Sequence record: MK327943.1
Reading direction: 5' to 3' (one strand)
Length of the DNA: 64,000 bases
From: Escherichia phage vB_EcoM_G53
Positions 2,191 through 60,571 of this stretch are shown here, piece by piece. Below the pieces are notes generated by a model. It was not told the DNA's origin and did not search any database. It saw only the letters and a program-made list of their open reading frames with translations. Position 1 is the stretch's first letter, and every line of letters begins with the position of its first letter. A program made the translations under genes and the position numbers.

Positions 2191-3759
2191 ATGACTACTA
2201 TCAAAACTAAAGCTCAGCTCGTAGACAAATGGAAAGAACTGCTGGAAGGTGAAGGCCTGCCGGAAATCGCTAATAGCAAGCAGGCTATTATCGCTAAAAT
2301 CTTCGAAAACCAGGAAAAAGATTTCGAAGTATCCCCTGAATATAAAGACGAGAAAATCGCTCAGGCATTTGGTTCTTTCTTGACCGAAGCTGAAATTGGT
2401 GGTGACCATGGTTATAATGCTCAGAACATCGCAGCAGGTCAAACCTCTGGTGCAGTAACCCAAATTGGGCCGGCAGTTATGGGTATGGTTCGTCGTGCTA
2501 TTCCTAATCTGATCGCCTTTGATATTTGTGGTGTTCAGCCTATGAACAGCCCGACCGGTCAGGTATTTGCTCTCCGTGCAGTATATGGTAAAGACCCTAT
2601 CGCTGCTGGCGCTAAAGAAGCTTTCCATCCGATGTATGCCCCAGACGCGATGTTCTCTGGTCAGGGTGCTGCTAAGAAATTCCCAGCTCTGGCTGCTGAC
2701 ACTACTACTGTTGTAGGTGATATCTATACTCACTTCTTCCAAGAAACTGGTACTGTATATCTGCAAGCTTCTGCTATCGTAACACTTGATTCTGGTGCAA
2801 CTGATGCAGCTAAATTAGATGCAGAAGTTAAGAAACAAATGGAAGCTGGTGCACTGGTAGAAATCGCTGAAGGTATGGCTACTTCTATCGCTGAACTCCA
2901 GGAAGGTTTCAACGGTTCTACCGATAACCCATGGAATGAAATGGGCTTCCGTATCGACAAACAAGTTATTGAAGCTAAATCTCGTCAGCTGAAAGCAGCT
3001 TACTCCATAGAATTGGCACAAGACCTCCGTGCAGTACACGGTATGGATGCTGATGCTGAACTGAGCGGTATTCTGGCTACAGAAATTATGCTAGAAATCA
3101 ACCGTGAAGTTGTTGATTGGATTAACTACTCTGCACAGGTTGGTAAATCTGGTATGACCCTGACTCCGGGTTCTAAAGCTGGTGTATTTGACTTCCAGGA
3201 CCCGATTGATATCCGTGGTGCTCGTTGGGCCGGTGAAAGCTTTAAATCTCTGTTGTTCCAGATTGATAAAGAAGCAGTTGAAATTGCTCGTCAAACCGGT
3301 CGTGGTGAAGGTAACTTCATTATCGCTTCCCGTAACGTAGTTAACGTACTGGCTTCAGTTGATACTGGTATTTCTTACGCTGCACAGGGTCTGGCTTCTG
3401 GTTTTAATACCGACACTACTAAGTCTGTATTTGCCGGTGTACTTGGTGGTAAATACCGCGTATACATCGACCAGTATGCTAAACAGGATTACTTCACCGT
3501 TGGTTACAAAGGCGCTAACGAAATGGATGCAGGTATTTACTATGCTCCTTACGTTGCACTTACCCCACTGCGTGGTTCCGATCCTAAGAACTTCCAGCCG
3601 GTAATGGGCTTTAAAACTCGTTATGGTATCGGTGTTAACCCGTTTGCTGAAAGTTCCCTGCAGGCTCCAGGTGCTCGCATCCAGTCCGGTATGCCGTCTA
3701 TCCTGAACAGCCTTGGTAAGAATGCTTACTTCCGCCGTGTATATGTAAAAGGCATCTAA
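2191..3759 (+). CDS. 23: Major capsid protein gp23
   Basis: 522 aa, near-identical to recalled T4 gp23 (521 aa) over its whole length. Confidence 0.98.
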   Translation: MTTIKTKAQLVDKWKELLEGEGLPEIANSKQAIIAKIFENQEKDFEVSPEYKDEKIAQAFGSFLTEAEIGGDHGYNAQNIAAGQTSGAVTQIGPAVMGMVRRAIPNLIAFDICGVQPMNSPTGQVFALRAVYGKDPIAAGAKEAFHPMYAPDAMFSGQGAAKKFPALAADTTTVVGDIYTHFFQETGTVYLQASAIVTLDSGATDAAKLDAEVKKQMEAGALVEIAEGMATSIAELQEGFNGSTDNPWNEMGFRIDKQVIEAKSRQLKAAYSIELAQDLRAVHGMDADAELSGILATEIMLEINREVVDWINYSAQVGKSGMTLTPGSKAGVFDFQDPIDIRGARWAGESFKSLLFQIDKEAVEIARQTGRGEGNFIIASRNVVNVLASVDTGISYAAQGLASGFNTDTTKSVFAGVLGGKYRVYIDQYAKQDYFTVGYKGANEMDAGIYYAPYVALTPLRGSDPKNFQPVMGFKTRYGIGVNPFAESSLQAPGARIQSGMPSILNSLGKNAYFRRVYVKGI

Positions 3760-3801: not shown

Positions 3802-3811
3802 ATTTTTGGTT

Positions 3812-4081
3812 TTATTTCTGTGCAATTTCGATGTAAGTTTTCAAAATATTTTGCCAATTAGGCATACCTTCTTGGACATATGCCGGAGAACCGTCTTTGT
3901 TTTTGAATGATGCAAGTTTATCAGTGGCCCAATAACCTTTAGCTCGAGCTTCAGAATCAACTTTCATCCATACTTTGTTGAAGGCATTACCATTAACTTT
4001 TGCACCATATTTTTCTACTAACTTAACTGCTTCAGCTTCCAGAACTTTTAAAGTATCTCGTAAGAAACGTGCTTTAGTCAT
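3812..4081 (-). CDS. Hypothetical 89-aa protein on opposite strand between genes 23 and 24 (position of segD in T4; not a GIY-YIG protein)
   Basis: Clean ORF with GAGGAG RBS and its own upstream early-type promoter; no recognisable domain. Confidence 0.6.
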   Translation of the reverse strand: MTKARFLRDTLKVLEAEAVKLVEKYGAKVNGNAFNKVWMKVDSEARAKGYWATDKLASFKNKDGSPAYVQEGMPNWQNILKTYIEIAQK

Positions 4082-4182: not shown

Positions 4183-5466
4183 ATGAGTAAAATCCAAAAA
4201 TTATTGCGTGAATCTACAACGTCTACTAGCAACTCAATTGGTCGCCCAAATCTCGTTGCTTTGACTCGCGCTACGACTAAATTAATATATTCTGACATTG
4301 TAGCAACACAAAGAACTAATCAACCTGTTGCTGCTTTTTATGGTATCAAATATCTTAACCCGGATAATGAATTCACATTTAAAACCGGTGCTACTTATGC
4401 TGGCGAAGTTGGATATGTAGACCGAGAAAAAATTACTGAACTCACAGAAGAATCAAAAGTCACACTAAATAAAGGTGATTTTTTCAAATATAATAATATC
4501 GTCTATAAAGTGTTAGAAGATACACCATTTGCAGATATTCAAGAAAGTGATCTAGAATTAGCTCTTCAGATTGCAGTCGTTCATTTAAAGGTACGGTTAT
4601 TTTCAGATGCAGCGGTAACAAGCAAATTTGAAAGCTCTGATAGCGAAATTTCTGATGCAAGATTCCAGATTAATAAATGGCAAACTTCAGTCAAATCTCG
4701 CAAACTTAAAACTGGTCTCACGGTTGAATTAGCGCAAGATTTGGAAGCGAATGGATTTGATGCCCCTAACTTCTTAGAAGATTTGCTTGCTACTGAAATG
4801 GCTGATGAAATTAATAAAGATATTCTTCAGTCTTTAATTACTGTATCGAAACGTTATAAAGTTACTGGAATTACTGACACCGGATTTATTGACTTGAGCT
4901 ATGCATCCGCTCCAGAAGCAGGTCGTTCATTATATCGAATGGTGTGTGAAATGGTATCACACATTCAAAAAGAGACAACTTATACTGCAACGTTTTGTGT
5001 AGCCTCAGCTCGTGCAGCTGCTATTCTTGCTGCTTCTGGTTGGTTAAAACATAAGCCAGAAGATGACAAGTATCTTTCACAAAATGCTTATGGATTCTTG
5101 GCAAATGGATTACCTCTTTACTGCGATACCAACAGTCCGTTAGATTATGTTATTGTGGGTGTTGTAGAAAATATCGGCGAAAAAGAAATTGTAGGGTCCA
5201 TCTTTTATGCTCCATACACTGAAGGAGTAGATTTAGATGACCCGGAACATGTCGGTGCATTTAAAGTTGTAGTTGATCCGGAAAGTTTGCAACCGTCTAT
5301 CGGATTATTGGTTAGATATGCTTTATCAGCAAATCCTTACACAGTAGCAAAAGACGAAAAAGAAGCGAGAATAATTGATGGCGGGGACATGGATAAAATG
5401 GCGGGACGTTCAGATTTGTCTGTTTTATTAGGTGTTAAGCTACCAAAAATTATTGTTGATGAATAA
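4183..5466 (+). CDS. 24: Capsid vertex protein gp24
   Basis: 427 aa, near-identical to recalled T4 gp24; TATAAATA late promoter upstream. Confidence 0.97.
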   Translation: MSKIQKLLRESTTSTSNSIGRPNLVALTRATTKLIYSDIVATQRTNQPVAAFYGIKYLNPDNEFTFKTGATYAGEVGYVDREKITELTEESKVTLNKGDFFKYNNIVYKVLEDTPFADIQESDLELALQIAVVHLKVRLFSDAAVTSKFESSDSEISDARFQINKWQTSVKSRKLKTGLTVELAQDLEANGFDAPNFLEDLLATEMADEINKDILQSLITVSKRYKVTGITDTGFIDLSYASAPEAGRSLYRMVCEMVSHIQKETTYTATFCVASARAAAILAASGWLKHKPEDDKYLSQNAYGFLANGLPLYCDTNSPLDYVIVGVVENIGEKEIVGSIFYAPYTEGVDLDDPEHVGAFKVVVDPESLQPSIGLLVRYALSANPYTVAKDEKEARIIDGGDMDKMAGRSDLSVLLGVKLPKIIVDE

Positions 5467-55310: not shown

Positions 55311-55970
55311 ATGGCAACACCAAAAGTGTCATTTTCGCCTAGTGATATTCTATTTGGGTTGCTAGATCGTATTTTCAAAGATAACGCTACTGGAAAGGTT
55401 TTAATGTCCCGAGTAGCGGTAATTATTCTTTTGTTCCTAATGGCACTAATATGGTACAAAGGAAGTATTTTGCTGGATTATTATGTAAGATCTAAGTATG
55501 ATACTTATACTGAAATAATCCAAAAAGAACGAGCTTTACGTTTTGAATCTGCGGCTCTAGAACAACTGCAAATAGTTCATATCTCATCTGGTGCAGATTT
55601 TAGTGCTGTGTATTCTTTCAGACCTAAAAACTTAAATTATTTCGTCGACCTTATAGCTTATGAAGGCAAACTGCCTAGCACAATTTCTGAAAAGTCCCTT
55701 GGCGGATTTCCAGTGGACAAAACGGCCAATGAATATATAATTCATTTAAGTGGCCGTCATTTCTCGTCTAAATCAGAATTTGCATTTTTGCCTACAAAAT
55801 CTAAGACTGCCGAACTTTCTTATATGTATAGTTGTCCATACTTTAATTTGGATAACATCTATGCTGGAACTGTGACGATGTATTGGTATAAGGGGAATAA
55901 TATACTTGAGGAAGATCGCTTAGCGGCTATATGCAACCAAGCGGTCCGAATACTAGGAAGGGCTAAATAA
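55311..55970 (+). CDS. t: Holin T
   Basis: 219 aa; strong match to recalled T4 holin incl. single TM segment. Confidence 0.95.
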   Translation: MATPKVSFSPSDILFGLLDRIFKDNATGKVLMSRVAVIILLFLMALIWYKGSILLDYYVRSKYDTYTEIIQKERALRFESAALEQLQIVHISSGADFSAVYSFRPKNLNYFVDLIAYEGKLPSTISEKSLGGFPVDKTANEYIIHLSGRHFSSKSEFAFLPTKSKTAELSYMYSCPYFNLDNIYAGTVTMYWYKGNNILEEDRLAAICNQAVRILGRAK

Positions 55971-56243
55971 TTAGTTGTTAGAATACATCGCTAAATGACG
56001 ATAAATATTTTCAAAACCTTCATTGAATTCACTAATCAGTGTTTTCTTTTCTTCGGCAGTTAAATTTGTAATTAGTTTTCTGAACGAATTCTGATTTAGC
56101 TGCCGACCATCTTTTTTAATTCCAATCTCATTCAAGAATCCGATGAAACTTGCTCGGTCTTCAACAATATCTTCCCTAGAGAATTTAATCAAAATAGAAG
56201 CAATAGTAATAATTTCGCGTACGATTTCAATGTCTTTATTCAT
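55971..56243 (-). CDS. asiA: Anti-sigma70 factor AsiA
   Basis: 90 aa; close match to recalled T4 AsiA. Confidence 0.93.
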   Translation of the reverse strand: MNKDIEIVREIITIASILIKFSREDIVEDRASFIGFLNEIGIKKDGRQLNQNSFRKLITNLTAEEKKTLISEFNEGFENIYRHLAMYSNN

Positions 56244-56289
56244 AACGTTTTATTCATTCCACTTAATTGATAGGAGTATAGTACCATTA

Positions 56290-56451
56290 TCAGTGTTGAT
56301 TGTAAACGGCTTTTTCTACGCTTTTAACGTAATTGGTATAGTCTTCCTGTTCGTACGAGTTTAAGGCTAAGAACGAGGCTAATAGTTCATTATAGACTAA
56401 AGCCTCACGCTCACGTTCGGCCTCTACTACGTTCTGAAGATTATGACTCAT
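56290..56451 (-). CDS. Hypothetical small acidic protein
   Basis: ORF with internal ATG start downstream of arn-like gene. Confidence 0.4.
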   Translation of the reverse strand: MSHNLQNVVEAEREREALVYNELLASFLALNSYEQEDYTNYVKSVEKAVYNQH

Positions 56452-56740
56452 ATTGTTCCTTATAACTATCAATGTAGTCCTGTATGTCGAAGAATGACAT
56501 TTCATATTCTAGGACATTAAGAGCCCGTTCTTCAGTATAGTCAGAACCAAAGACGATAGTGATTTCACCAGGCTTCATGTGATTGAAATCGACACTAAAA
56601 GGAATACGAGAACATACTTCGTCTTCCATATCTACGATAACACTACGACACACTTCTCGGTTAACCTGATAAAGCTCTGCAAGTTCTTCACAACGAATAA
56701 CAAGTTCAGTGGCAGGATTTTCTTTGATTTTAGTAAGCAT
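56441..56740 (-). CDS. Hypothetical acidic protein, possibly Arn (anti-restriction nuclease) by position
   Basis: 99-aa acidic ORF between asiA and motA; identity to T4 Arn not verified. Confidence 0.45.
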   Translation of the reverse strand: MLTKIKENPATELVIRCEELAELYQVNREVCRSVIVDMEDEVCSRIPFSVDFNHMKPGEITIVFGSDYTEERALNVLEYEMSFFDIQDYIDSYKEQYES

Positions 56741-56814
56741 AGTCTTTACCCTTATGTTTTTGTTTGCGTTTAGATTGAAGTTCTGATTTCTTCTTGTCCT
56801 TATGGACAGAAGCC

Positions 56815-57042
56815 TTATTGAAATCGTGTTTTGCTACAAGATTGTTCATAATGATTTATAACCTCATTTAAACATTTGTCTGTGAAAGAAAACTTTTTAG
56901 CCACAGAACATTCGATAATGTGCTCTTTCAAATCTTTAGAGTCAGTATAACCCATCTCAGTAATAAAGTGGCGAATTAAAGCTTTATTCTTATCATTAAC
57001 AGAATTAAAATAATCTGCTTTAGAATCAATTATTCTCATCAT
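56815..57042 (-). CDS. Hypothetical protein
   Basis: 75-aa ORF. Confidence 0.5.
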   Translation of the reverse strand: MMRIIDSKADYFNSVNDKNKALIRHFITEMGYTDSKDLKEHIIECSVAKKFSFTDKCLNEVINHYEQSCSKTRFQ

Positions 57043-57307
57043 CTAATTTCCTTAATTGATATTGCAACGAGCTAATAATTTCTTCATTCATTTTAATATA
57101 CATGTCGCGCAAGAAAGGTTTTAACCCATCACGAATAATTGCTAACGTATCACCTTTACATAAATTAACCAAATAAGGATGGTCTAAAGCATCCCAACCA
57201 GGCTGATTAGCATACATACCATAATTTTCTTCCATCATAGCATTCAGGCGTTTGATATGATTAATGTGGGCTTCAATAGCATCAATCTGGAGTTGTTTAA
57301 GATTCAT
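57026..57307 (-). CDS. Hypothetical protein
   Basis: 93-aa ORF. Confidence 0.5.
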   Translation of the reverse strand: MNLKQLQIDAIEAHINHIKRLNAMMEENYGMYANQPGWDALDHPYLVNLCKGDTLAIIRDGLKPFLRDMYIKMNEEIISSLQYQLRKLDDENN

Positions 57308-57768
57308 TAGTAAAGGTCCTCAGAGTAAAGTTCTTTTTCATTACCACCACGTTCAATACGTACTTGTCCAGCGTAAGTTGCAATAATCATTGCTTCTTCA
57401 CGTGTCCAATAATTACTATATTGGTCAATAAACCCTTGGTCATCATCACAAACTTGTTGAGTAACTAATTGAGGTTTAACTACATCTAAAACTTCTGCCA
57501 TATCTTTAGAATAATGACGAGCACCTGGAATAATAAGAGTTCGTCCATCTTTTAATTTAAAACGGTTGGCTGCGCAGACAATTCGTCGTTGATACTTTTG
57601 GTTTTCATCCCAATACAGAGTCTGCCAACAGATTTCAGGAACTTCATCTAAAACATTTTGTTCTGTATATTCACCACCGTAAGAAGCTAATTTAGCAGCC
57701 AGACTTTCCGGAGTCTCACGCGACAAAGCTTTATCTAACAGAGCTAAACGTTCTTTAAAAGTTTTCAT
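57307..57768 (-). CDS. Hypothetical protein
   Basis: 153-aa ORF. Confidence 0.55.
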
Positions 57769-58094
57769 TTAAACCATCCTTTAATACGTTGCCAAATAGA
57801 TTTTTGTGCTTGTTTATTAACACCAATTGAACGAATAACCGGTTGTGACTGCTGATATTCTTTATAATCTTCTTTATAGATTTCGTAAGCTGCATCAACA
57901 AATGAACTGATCGCTGCCATAAAGTTTTTACGAAGACCAAATGGCGCGTCATTATTTTCACGAATAACCGTATATTGGCCTGCTTTAATCTTTACAATTG
58001 TCCCTAAATAAGCCCCGTGATACCAAATATCCCATCCTTCCTGAGTAGGTTCTGCACATTTACGAAGTTCGTTAATAATATTCAGCTTATTCAT
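57765..58094 (-). CDS. Hypothetical protein
   Basis: 109-aa ORF, 4-nt overlap with downstream gene. Confidence 0.55.
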
Positions 58095-58104
58095 TATGTA
58101 TTCC

Positions 58105-58737
58105 TCACAGTACGTTAGTTACAAGGGTAATGATTTCTTTGGAAACATTAGGGAAGTCAATGTAAGTATATTTACCACCGATCTTAATCTTAACATCATT
58201 TTCAAGAGAAGTAAACAGCTTTGATTCGGTTTCTGACATGTTGTATGCAAAGATTCTAAGAGCGCCATCTCGTCGAATTTCAATTTGGCGAATACCTAGA
58301 ACTCGTTTAGCGAATCGAACTTCCAAGTTACTACGGTTTTCACCAATTTCTTTAACTTCAACTTTATCTTTAATATTTTCAAAAACAAAGTTTGCTAATT
58401 CATGCATTTCAGGAGTAACTCCACGTGCTTTTCTAGTGTTACGTTTCTGAAGAAGTTCTGGAGCATTTTCTTGGGCAAAGAGGTCTGCAGCTTTTTGGAT
58501 AATATCCATTGCTTCGCCTGTTGCTACAAGTCCATCACCGGATTTTTCGACTAAACCTTTCTTAATCAATACACCAATGTTAGAGTTAACAACCGATGCA
58601 TTGTATTCCGCTTCCAGAGCTTCACGGACATTGGCAGCAGTGGTGAAGTTGTTCTTAATGATATAAACCATTATTGCAGCAGTTTTTTCATTCAGAGCGT
58701 TTTCAGAAGCTTTGATGATGTAAGTAACTTTAGACAT
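58105..58737 (-). CDS. motA: MotA, activator of middle-mode transcription
   Basis: 210 aa; matches recalled T4 MotA. Confidence 0.92.
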   Translation of the reverse strand: MSKVTYIIKASENALNEKTAAIMVYIIKNNFTTAANVREALEAEYNASVVNSNIGVLIKKGLVEKSGDGLVATGEAMDIIQKAADLFAQENAPELLQKRNTRKARGVTPEMHELANFVFENIKDKVEVKEIGENRSNLEVRFAKRVLGIRQIEIRRDGALRIFAYNMSETESKLFTSLENDVKIKIGGKYTYIDFPNVSKEIITLVTNVL

Positions 58738-58806
58738 TTTATTTCTCCAAATTAGTATTTTTTTTTTTGATAGGTCTATAATATCATGTTTGAAGCAAAA
58801 GTAAAC
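58722..58806 (-). repeat. Promoter/RBS/start cassette, copy 1 (upstream of motA)
   Basis: ~90% identical to 59045-59127 incl. tttagacattttatttctccaa and gataggtctataatatcatgtttgaagc. Confidence 0.8.
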
Positions 58807-58843
58807 TTTATTTTGGGCTCTTTTTCAAAAGCCCTGGTAAAAT

Positions 58844-59059
58844 TTACAAACTCATTTCTTTAATAAGGCTAATAAGTTTTGCCTTTTTAGAACGAAGCTT
58901 TTCTAAATGATACCCGTTTGAACCGCGAACAACTAAAGAATTGATTTCAACTTCTAAGAAATTTAATTCTTCAACAAGTGCTTTACGGGGAGCATTCATA
59001 CCAGGTTTAACTTTACCGAAACGAGTAGTTGTGTTTTGGGTTAATTTCATTTTAGACAT
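58844..59059 (-). CDS. Hypothetical 71-aa basic protein with motA-like 5' leader
   Basis: ORF starting MSKMK preceded by duplicated promoter/RBS cassette. Confidence 0.55.
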   Translation of the reverse strand: MSKMKLTQNTTTRFGKVKPGMNAPRKALVEELNFLEVEINSLVVRGSNGYHLEKLRSKKAKLISLIKEMSL

Positions 59060-59127
59060 TTTATTTCTCCAATTTGGTTGTTTTGTTTTGATAGGTCTAT
59101 AATATCATGTTTGAAGCACATGTAAAC
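59045..59127 (-). repeat. Promoter/RBS/start cassette, copy 2
   Basis: Near-identical to 58722-58806. Confidence 0.8.
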
Positions 59128-59153
59128 TGTTTTGTGAGGAAAAATGCACAAAA

Positions 59154-59169
59154 GGGAGCCGAAGCTCCC
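59154..59169 (-). terminator. Terminator hairpin after gene 52
   Basis: GGGAGC-CGAA-GCUCCC followed by U-rich tract. Confidence 0.55.
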
Positions 59170-59245
59170 TAATCATGTTTGTCCAACCAATACAGCCAAA
59201 TCACTAGTGCAGCTATTGCACTGAGAAATCCTAAGGCTAGGGCAC

Positions 59246-60571
59246 TCAAAGTGCCTCCAAGTCTTTAGTGTACTCTGTCACAACATCAGTAGACTTCCAA
59301 TACTCATTTTCTTCTTTCTTAGCTTTAGCTTCTTCTGCTAGTTTACGTGCTTCATCGGAAGTGATATGGAAGATGTTAAGACCTACCAGTTTATCGACAT
59401 GTTCTTTATACATTTCGATTTGTGCTAGCTCTTCGGTCAAAGCTTTACGAGTCTTGCCTTGAATCACAATTTCGCCACTGATAACTTTTTTGATGAAGTG
59501 TGCCTTAGCAAAAGCAAGTTTAAATGCTTTTTCAGATTCAAGGATTTTGTTGTCAATACGTTTCTGAACGTAAGTCTTACGGACTTCAACAAAATCTTTG
59601 ATTAAGTCCACTACGTTATCGTAGACAGCTAATTTACCCTTTTCATTAATCACTGTGATGTTTTGTGAACGACGTTCGATGAGACTAAAATCTTTCATGA
59701 TTTTTTCATGACGTAGCTCTTCATCATCAGGAAGCGAGTACTCTTTACGGAACTTCACCTTAAACCCAAAGCCGTGTTCACCGCAATCATCTTCCCACGA
59801 GATTAGACCTTTGTCTTCCAACGGGTCAAGAACCTTACTCACGTACGTTTCACGGTCGAATTTATATGGGATTTCAGTTATTTGCATTTGAGTGCGAGAT
59901 GTGAACTTGTATGTTCCGTGAATCTCATAACGCCCATCAACTTCATGTACTTCACCACGGAATTCCGGGAATTCAACTTTTGGCTTAGTGACATTTTTAC
60001 CTTGAAGAGCTTGTAATACGGCCTTTTTGACTGATTTAAAACTATGAGGCAGAATATTTGTTGCGTAACCGGTTGCAATACCAGAGACGCCATTCAAAAG
60101 AACTGTCGGAATAATAGGAAGATAGAATTTTGGTGGAATGTGTTCTTTATCTTCATGAGCTGGAGCATATTCAGTATCTTTATATACGTTATAGAAATTT
60201 TTACTTACACGAGCAAAAATATAACGAGATGCTGCAGCTTTTTGGACTGTTCGAGAACCAAAGTTGCCTTGGCCATCTAACAGTGGATAGTTGTTGTTCC
60301 ATGTGTTAGCCATCAATGCACCTGCATCTTGTGCAGAAGATTCACCATGGTGATAACCTAAATCTGCAACACCGCCTGCAATTGACGCAAGTTTATGAAA
60401 TTTTTCTTTATTACCACGAGCCAAATCTAACGCACGATGGACCACAAAACGTTGAACCGGCTTAAATCCATCAATCATGTTCGGGATTGCACGGTTTTCA
60501 ACGGTGTACATCGCATATGCTAAGGCTTCGTTATCAATAATACTTTTTAGATTACGAGAATTCAATTGCAT
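59246..60571 (-). CDS. 52: DNA topoisomerase II medium subunit gp52
   Basis: 441 aa; strong match to recalled T4 gp52. Confidence 0.96.
   Translation of the reverse strand: MQLNSRNLKSIIDNEALAYAMYTVENRAIPNMIDGFKPVQRFVVHRALDLARGNKEKFHKLASIAGGVADLGYHHGESSAQDAGALMANTWNNNYPLLDGQGNFGSRTVQKAAASRYIFARVSKNFYNVYKDTEYAPAHEDKEHIPPKFYLPIIPTVLLNGVSGIATGYATNILPHSFKSVKKAVLQALQGKNVTKPKVEFPEFRGEVHEVDGRYEIHGTYKFTSRTQMQITEIPYKFDRETYVSKVLDPLEDKGLISWEDDCGEHGFGFKVKFRKEYSLPDDEELRHEKIMKDFSLIERRSQNITVINEKGKLAVYDNVVDLIKDFVEVRKTYVQKRIDNKILESEKAFKLAFAKAHFIKKVISGEIVIQGKTRKALTEELAQIEMYKEHVDKLVGLNIFHITSDEARKLAEEAKAKKEENEYWKSTDVVTEYTKDLEAL

Follow-up and report, generated by a model that had tools for sequence, protein, structure and literature searches.

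The interval between asiA and motA in Escherichia phage vB_EcoM_G53 (record MK327943.1, of which a stretch of 64,000 nucleotides (nt), hereafter the window, was analyzed) raises the question of whether it is a variable zone of uncharacterized host-interaction genes, as an initial annotation of the window held, or a known operon in diverged form. Judged by gene content and order, the block (positions 56290–58094 of the window, minus strand) is the Mosigvirus version of the conserved T-even arn operon with fast-evolving members, and not a hypervariable zone. We give the full explanation—i.e. a conserved arn operon with an ortholog of Arn, the elongasome-modulating peptide Emp, an Arn.3 module, and otherwise conserved genes—a probability of roughly 0.8. 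Most of this is known T-even biology; what is new is a cryptic Arn homolog in a genus recently said to lack Arn.

The Arn homolog is encoded at 56441–56740 (minus strand) by an open reading frame (ORF) of 99 amino acids (aa), with an isoelectric point (pI) of 4.25 and a net charge of -13, compared with 92 aa, pI 4.55, and -9 for T4 Arn. This is the strongly acidic ORF that the initial annotation proposed might be Arn, a suggestion that proves right at the level of remote homology. No pairwise similarity between the 2 proteins is found by blastp against the T4 locus proteins, and tblastn with either query finds its own genus group only. T4 Arn proper is confined in tblastn searches to Tequatrovirus (485 records, essentially all with at least 90% identity), and the 99-aa family to Mosigvirus (about 165 records) and Dhakavirus (31–35% identity). 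The 2 families occupy the same slot and are mutually exclusive, never being found together.

Profile comparison connects them. Specifically, hhalign of the 99-aa family (a 15-sequence alignment) against T4 Arn returns P = 5e-5 and a score of 29.9 over 81 columns, nearly end to end, while 300 composition-preserving shuffles of Arn score 11.0 ± 2.3 (maximum 21) and no other locus protein scores above 16. The 99-aa family has relatives in Jiaodavirus and Kanagawavirus, namely the proteins encoded directly after the small DUF7230 gene (92 aa, P = 1.2e-5, and 88 aa, P = 1.3e-3, respectively), and with these added the match to Arn reaches Prob 93.5%, P = 2.3e-7, and a score of 41.6 over 85 columns, against a maximum of 17.6 among shuffles (200–300 shuffles in these controls). 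A C-terminal (L/I)(E/Q)DY(I/F)(D/E) motif is common to the 99-aa protein and T4 Arn, and the Jiaodavirus, Kanagawavirus, and 99-aa-family proteins all end in an (L/I)x(D)Y motif, like EIEDYFE of Arn. The gene also lies where T4 arn does, adjoining asiA.1 and downstream of arn.1/DUF7230, and the equivalent slot is filled in Dhakavirus JS10, Mosigvirus ESCO47, Jiaodavirus, and Kanagawavirus. The predicted structure of the 99-aa protein has the fold of the Arn crystal structure (PDB 3WX4). On these profile and model comparisons, we regard the protein as a diverged ortholog of T4 Arn. With the Arn fold matched, we took a weak PP7 coat-protein hit to the same ORF (E = 0.001) to be spurious.

By its resemblance to T4 Arn, the 99-aa protein is most likely an acidic DNA mimic that would block the type IV restriction enzyme McrBC, and it may also block H-NS or other DNA-binding defense proteins. 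A block of McrBC would protect new hydroxymethylcytosine (hmC) DNA ahead of its sugar modification. Like T7 Ocr and ArdA, it would belong with the small, very acidic, early-expressed anti-restriction proteins. It differs from T4 Arn, a homodimer with surface charges imitating B-DNA that inhibits McrBC, binds H-NS, and inhibits PUA-Cal-HAD, in being invisible to BLAST and tblastn and in ending with an additional C-terminal tail (SYKEQYES). The authors of a 2026 preprint on Mosigvirus AV110 say outright that phage and genus have no Arn homolog, and they suggest that Arn function is absent or performed by a sequence-unrelated protein; by profile homology and fold, the 99-aa protein fills this gap. 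With the slot proteins included, Arn would widen from a Tequatrovirus-specific protein to a fast-evolving superfamily of T-even phages, with members also in Mosigvirus, Dhakavirus, Jiaodavirus, and Kanagawavirus, which could serve as a natural series in which to study shifts in the target specificity of DNA mimics.

The phage itself is a Mosigvirus (RB69-type T-even phage); its positions 55900–59300 are 98.6% identical to Shigella phage SHSML-52-1, and 146 phage records each cover at least 80% of that region. The limits first given for the block are exact: 58094 is the start of its first ORF and 56290 the stop of its last. The flanks are motA upstream (58105–58737, minus strand, first gene of the transcription unit; Pfam MotA_activ E = 2.4e-39, MotCF E = 2.2e-8) and asiA downstream (55971–56243, minus strand; Pfam AsiA E = 2.4e-32). 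Between them lie 7 minus-strand ORFs of 53, 99, 39, 75, 93, 153, and 109 aa, rather than the 6 originally counted, the 39-aa ORF at 56730–56849 having been overlooked. Every one has a PHROG family match (E 1e-22 to 1e-72), neighboring genes abut or overlap by 1 to 35 nt (e.g. at ATGA and TAATG junctions), and a Shine-Dalgarno-like GAGG or AGGA precedes each start codon. Against orthologs from T4, JS10, and ESCO47, the proportion of nonsynonymous differences (pN, 0.10–0.56) is well under that of synonymous differences (pS, 0.20–0.87), with a nonsynonymous to synonymous rate ratio (dN/dS) of 0.08–0.45 where dS is unsaturated. Because of the PHROG matches, the packed starts and stops with Shine-Dalgarno-like sequences, and a dN/dS below 1, all 7 ORFs are genuine genes under purifying selection and not chance ORFs. 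Pfam, NCBIfam, and PDB sequence searches with all of them returned DUF7230 only (the Pfam set used was without the PF26092 model), an Rfam scan of the block returned zero families, and repeats within it are at chance level. The claim that the remaining ORFs have no recognizable motifs holds for functional motifs, while all of them fall in recognized conserved families.

The order asiA.1, Arn-like gene, DUF7230, (arn.1), arn.2, arn.3, arn.4, motA is common to Tequatrovirus, Mosigvirus, and Dhakavirus, and Kanagawavirus has a reduced version that lacks some of the genes; in Jiaodavirus the DUF7230/Arn-like pair is all that was identified of the block. By tblastn, arn.2 is present in 941 phage records, full-length arn.4 in 1,001, and DUF7230 in 1,485. 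We put the syntenic operon at about 1,000 phage genomes. Five of the 7 ORFs are plain orthologs of named T4 genes (blastp against the T4 locus proteins) in unchanged order, which speaks against the interval being a hypervariable accessory island in which unrelated anti-defense genes are swapped in and out and the ORFs are lineage-specific novelties. That account draws on Dhakavirus JS10, where arn.1 is missing and one extra 116-aa gene is present, on the unrelated proteins that follow DUF7230 in Karamvirus and Vibrio phage ValKK3, and on a duplicated promoter and 5' untranslated region (UTR) cassette flanking a neighboring 71-aa ORF, which could promote shuffling. The sixth ORF (99 aa), however, is a remote homolog in the same slot as T4 arn, T4 has the seventh (DUF7230) as well, as an unannotated ORF, and with arn.2, arn.4, and DUF7230 in 941–1,485 records the synteny comparison largely refutes such an island, which we consider highly improbable. 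Variation within the conserved arn operon consists of divergence rate (Arn, AsiA.1, and Arn.2) plus a few presence/absence differences, i.e. the missing arn.1 and the extra JS10 gene. "Variable zone" therefore overstated the case, as did "uncharacterized," given the reported target of Arn.4/Emp and the 5 orthologs of named T4 genes; the notion of host-interaction genes is reasonable as a general idea, considering the counter-defense role of Arn and the targeting of MreBCD by AV110 Emp.

The JS10 extra gene (JS10 locus 1295–1645) lies between arn.4 and arn.3, and the N-terminus of its 116-aa product (MIPMELNWDGEG...IEEP) is also found as an N-terminal extension of some Arn.3 homologs (P0021, P0034, and P0050), a pattern suggestive of fusion and splitting of a module. 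As to the slot after DUF7230, the gene there is not Arn-like in Karamvirus AS6 (locus 1910–2260) or in ValKK3 (1913–2212), and the Karamvirus protein resembles, by eye only, the product of another gene, which follows the Arn-like gene in Jiaodavirus (2185–2511). On these comparisons, the slot holds at least 2 alternative families across the subfamily.

The first gene after motA, at 57765–58094 (minus strand), encodes the 109-aa Arn.4 ortholog (basic, pI 9.35; phrog_1594, E = 4e-53). It is identical to Gp94/Emp of AV110 at 107 of 109 residues (substitutions N5S and F58Y), with equal length and equal position directly after motA, and 78% identical to T4 Arn.4 over its C-terminal 67 aa. AV110 Gp94 is toxic, inhibiting Escherichia coli growth, and gives lemon-shaped cells, in which peptidoglycan synthesis is mislocalized and the protein sits at the cell periphery; the effect is partly suppressed by overexpression of MreB, MreD, or MreBCD, and the protein, which the authors named Emp, is reported to bind MreB, MreC, and MreD (bioRxiv 10.64898/2026.09.14.751387). 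In the same screen, Gp92 and Gp93 of AV110 were not growth-inhibitory. By analogy with this 98%-identical protein, Arn.4/Emp would bind the MreBCD elongasome and disturb lateral cell-wall synthesis. The T4 reference annotation of this family covers the C-terminal 68 aa only. Upstream of annotated arn.4, positions 4835–4960 of the T4 locus hold the N-terminal 42 residues of the full 109-aa protein in frame, and the first 58 residues of the full-length T4 frame are 78% identical to the protein here; at the position of the ATG start of arn.4 in this phage, T4 has ATA. T4 Arn.4 is probably annotated too short, or else T4 uses a noncanonical or coupled start.

The block is probably transcribed with motA. 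A sigma-70-like promoter (TTTACT-16-TATTAT) overlapping the MotA-box-like TTTGCTTCA lies upstream of motA (58778–58805, minus strand), and in a consensus scan of 55900–59300 the sole MotA-box match with a -10 element is this site, near 58800. Inside the block, consensus scans detected no promoter signal stronger than it, and no terminator was detectable. The motA stop and the arn.4 start are 10 nt apart, and in T2 the genes from arn.4 to arn form one transcript (bioRxiv 10.64898/2026.06.19.733364). Based on the 10-nt gap, the packed genes, and the promoter upstream of motA, and in agreement with the T2 transcript, we infer that the block is co-transcribed with motA from this early/middle promoter region and translated by coupling. 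Its products would then be small early/middle-period proteins acting on host targets. A separate sigma-70-like promoter for asiA (56306–56278, minus strand) was found by promoter scan within the 3' end of the 53-aa ORF.

Several points weigh against this explanation. The single-transcription-unit model derives from consensus scans and T2 data, and weak sigma-70-like matches do occur within the block. Identity between the 99-aa protein and T4 Arn is 13–15% in the profile alignment. One of 5 AlphaFold2 (AF2) models of the 99-aa protein is confident (87.5, with the other 4 at 40–49), the input was an alignment of 15 sequences, and AF2 was presumably trained on 3WX4, as we assume from its 2014 release. 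In the hhalign alignment, T4 Arn Asn70 corresponds to Thr69 of the 99-aa protein; Asn70 is needed by T4 Arn to inhibit PUA-Cal-HAD, and T2 Arn (N70S) does not inhibit this system (PMC12871103). Since specificity shifts with single substitutions and the aligned residue is Thr, target range is not transferable from T4 Arn. The Emp data come from a preprint and were obtained by plasmid overexpression and a two-hybrid assay (bioRxiv 10.64898/2026.09.14.751387).

Divergence and model confidence of this order bear on whether the Arn match is an artifact, produced jointly by a common alpha+beta two-layer fold, acidic bias, and AlphaFold recalling a training structure, in which case the gene would be a nonhomologous replacement. 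The alignment given to AF2, however, held no Arn sequence, the hhalign scores stand 8–14 standard deviations above composition-preserving shuffles, and they climb when independent slot proteins of other genera are added. With an end-to-end alignment and a shared C-terminal motif besides, an artifact appears very unlikely.

A more serious rival keeps the Arn fold but has the protein retargeted from McrBC to another DNA-binding host factor or defense system; candidates are H-NS, a type IV enzyme of GmrSD/BrxU type recognizing glycosylated hmC, and a PUA-Cal-HAD-like system. Extreme divergence in a conserved slot (13–15% identity to T4 Arn, and 31–35% between Mosigvirus and Dhakavirus) is typical of arms-race proteins, although conservation of position, size, and charge, and of the C-terminal motif, points to a core activity that was kept. 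Three substitutions already alter target range between T4 and T2 Arn (PMC12871103), and Arn is reported to bind H-NS too (Ho et al. 2014, as cited in a later paper). RB69-type phages carry arabinosyl-hmC rather than glucosyl-hmC (PMC6024577), so the relevant host nucleases may differ; yet both genera pass through a stage of unmodified hmC DNA, which leaves McrBC a threat in both. We consider retargeting possible but on balance unlikely, and prefer a diverged Arn that would act on McrBC, for which Asn70 is a specificity feature rather than one that defines the family.

The T2/T4 arn operon has also been described as controlled by the host small RNA ArcZ and RNase E (Collins et al. 2026 preprint). 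The gene order downstream of motA is identical here, and 3 differences stand out. At the arn.2 3' end, this phage has TTAAGGAAAT (7/10 matching; window 57026–57050) in place of CCAGGGAAAT, the T4 site for ArcZ pairing, the GCAUU RNase E motif of T2/T4 is CCACUU through synonymous changes (about 56965–56975), and the arn.2–arn.1 intergenic region is absent because the long arn.1 ORF overlaps arn.2. Given these changes, ArcZ/RNase E control is probably not conserved in this Mosigvirus. ArcZ pairing across the block was considered and rejected, the RNAduplex energy (-41.1 kcal/mol) being no better than that of shuffled sequences (mean -38.8, standard deviation 3.1).

Arn.3 (153 aa; 57307–57768, minus strand) is 83% identical to T4 Arn.3, identical to AV110 Gp93 at 153 of 153 residues, and does not differ in kind from the T4 protein or its family. 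Its conserved part is the C-terminal ~95 residues, which correspond to the Pfam domain T4_Y16D (PF26092); this assignment was made through labels on homologs, a direct hmmscan giving no hit with a Pfam set from which the model was absent. Among 1.84 billion representatives, a profile search recovers 3,472 clusters (50% identity) at E ≤ 1e-3 and 1,416 at E ≤ 1e-10, whose members are either stand-alone proteins of 83–110 aa or carry the domain C-terminally in proteins of up to 434 aa that have no other Pfam domain. Seven residues invariant in 78 diverse members (H85, G112, F113, R123, Q135, L147, and E150) are all present here, as is the conserved core RH...QGFxD...R..A...Q...L.SE.LY, whose tail L-x-S-E-x-L-Y is invariant in the family. 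T4_Y16D is among the most widespread orphan phage domains, a large family that merits experimental work. Remote homology and structure prediction, the course proposed in the initial annotation, brought out the Arn relationship of the 99-aa ORF; for Arn.3, the confident predicted structure resembles no solved structure. The conservation suggests a ligand-binding or enzymatic module. Arn.3 might, for instance, act on a nucleotide-derived immune signal or an intermediate of DNA modification, either sequestering or modifying it.

Three known proteins were considered for Arn.3 and rejected. Acb5, with key residues R10/W38/H61, comes from genomes of actinophages, Bacillus phages, and archaeal viruses, and T-even phages do not carry it; model phages lack Lockin; and Sequestin is T4 Y16O, a different gene. 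No block ORF matches Sequestin (PF21825, the anti-Thoeris sponge) at E ≤ 0.1, and the start of T4 Y16O translated from a published cloning primer (MLAYQARVK) is unlike that of every block ORF. The arn.3 gene also holds a patch (nt 120–400, about 57370–57650 in the window) that is 98–100% nucleotide-identical to T4, with an exact run of 119 nt, while the rest of arn.3 and the neighboring genes are about 58–73% identical to T4; ESCO47, also a Mosigvirus, is 82% identical to the window across the whole of arn.3. The patch has the look of sequence recently exchanged by recombination between the Tequatrovirus and Mosigvirus lineages.

The overlooked 39-aa ORF (56730–56849, minus strand) encodes a very basic peptide (net +8; phrog_1359, E = 4e-22) that matches Pfam DUF7230 (PF23876) at E = 5.4e-13 and 49.3 bits, above the Pfam gathering threshold of 27. 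The closest RefSeq relative has it annotated, it evolves at dN/dS 0.08–0.17, and tblastn finds it as far as the T4-like phages of Klebsiella, Enterobacter, Edwardsiella, Aeromonas, and Vibrio, those of Vibrio being schizoT4 phages. T4 has an intact counterpart, 79.5% identical (NC_000866 locus 3581–3700, minus strand), which is missing from its RefSeq annotation. Here and in T4, the ends of the ORF overlap the 3' end of arn.1 and the 5' end of the Arn-like gene or arn, and in the Tevenvirinae genera examined the DUF7230 gene overlaps the start of the next gene. Conceivably, the peptide works together with the acidic Arn-like protein or regulates it. This idea is weaker than that of Arn.3 as a small-molecule-binding or enzymatic counter-defense module of unrecognized fold, and the 2 taken together are doubtful. 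An ArfA-like ribosome-rescue role was rejected: blastp with an E. coli ArfA sequence gave E = 0.81 over 5 residues, and hmmscan at E ≤ 10 on 4 DUF7230 members returned DUF7230 only.

The Arn.1 ortholog is a long form of 75 aa (56815–57042, minus strand; phrog_4452, E = 4e-40), 74% identical over its C-terminal part to annotated T4 Arn.1 (43 aa); with a longer T4 ORF (72 aa, TTG start), identity is 71% over 72 codons. Its N-terminal 30 codons (56953–57042) compared with T4 locus 3807–3893 show 69% identity over 29 codons, with pS 0.64 and pN 0.19. The 70-nt T2/T4 arn.2–arn.1 "intergenic region," which contains the RNase E site proposed in the ArcZ preprint, appears to be coding, and the TTG start of long T4 arn.1 falls within the ArcZ pairing site (TTG GCC AGG GAA ATT). 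T4 arn.1 is probably annotated too short, and the T4 reference would accordingly need corrections at this gene, at arn.4, and at the missing 39-aa gene.

The remaining 2 genes diverge faster. The Arn.2 ortholog (93 aa; 57026–57307, minus strand; phrog_1844, E = 9e-42) is 40% identical to T4 Arn.2 over 90 aa (E = 4e-20) and identical to AV110 Gp92 at 92 of 93 residues. The acidic 53-aa AsiA.1-like ORF (56290–56451, minus strand; phrog_5245, E = 8e-30) is 32% identical to T4 AsiA.1 over 40 aa (E = 3e-4) and 77% identical to its ESCO47 ortholog (dN/dS 0.13), and the internal ATG at 56451 is the asiA.1 start in relatives. Pfam, PHROG, and PDB-type sequence searches returned no relatives of known function for Arn.1, Arn.2, AsiA.1, or DUF7230.

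On the other side of motA, between it and gene 52, lies a basic 71-aa ORF (58844–59059, minus strand; pI 10.2, phrog_6200), which occupies the position of T4 motA.1 but is unrelated to that 49-aa hydrophobic peptide. A direct repeat of ~87 nt (58729–58815 and 59051–59136, 85–87% identical) duplicates a promoter, 5' UTR, ribosome-binding site, and first codons (ATGTCTAAA, MSK), with one copy upstream of motA, the other upstream of the 71-aa ORF, and a GC-rich hairpin ahead of each. This arrangement is reminiscent of the promoter-early stem-loop cassettes that have been put forward as drivers of modular shuffling in genomes of T4 type.

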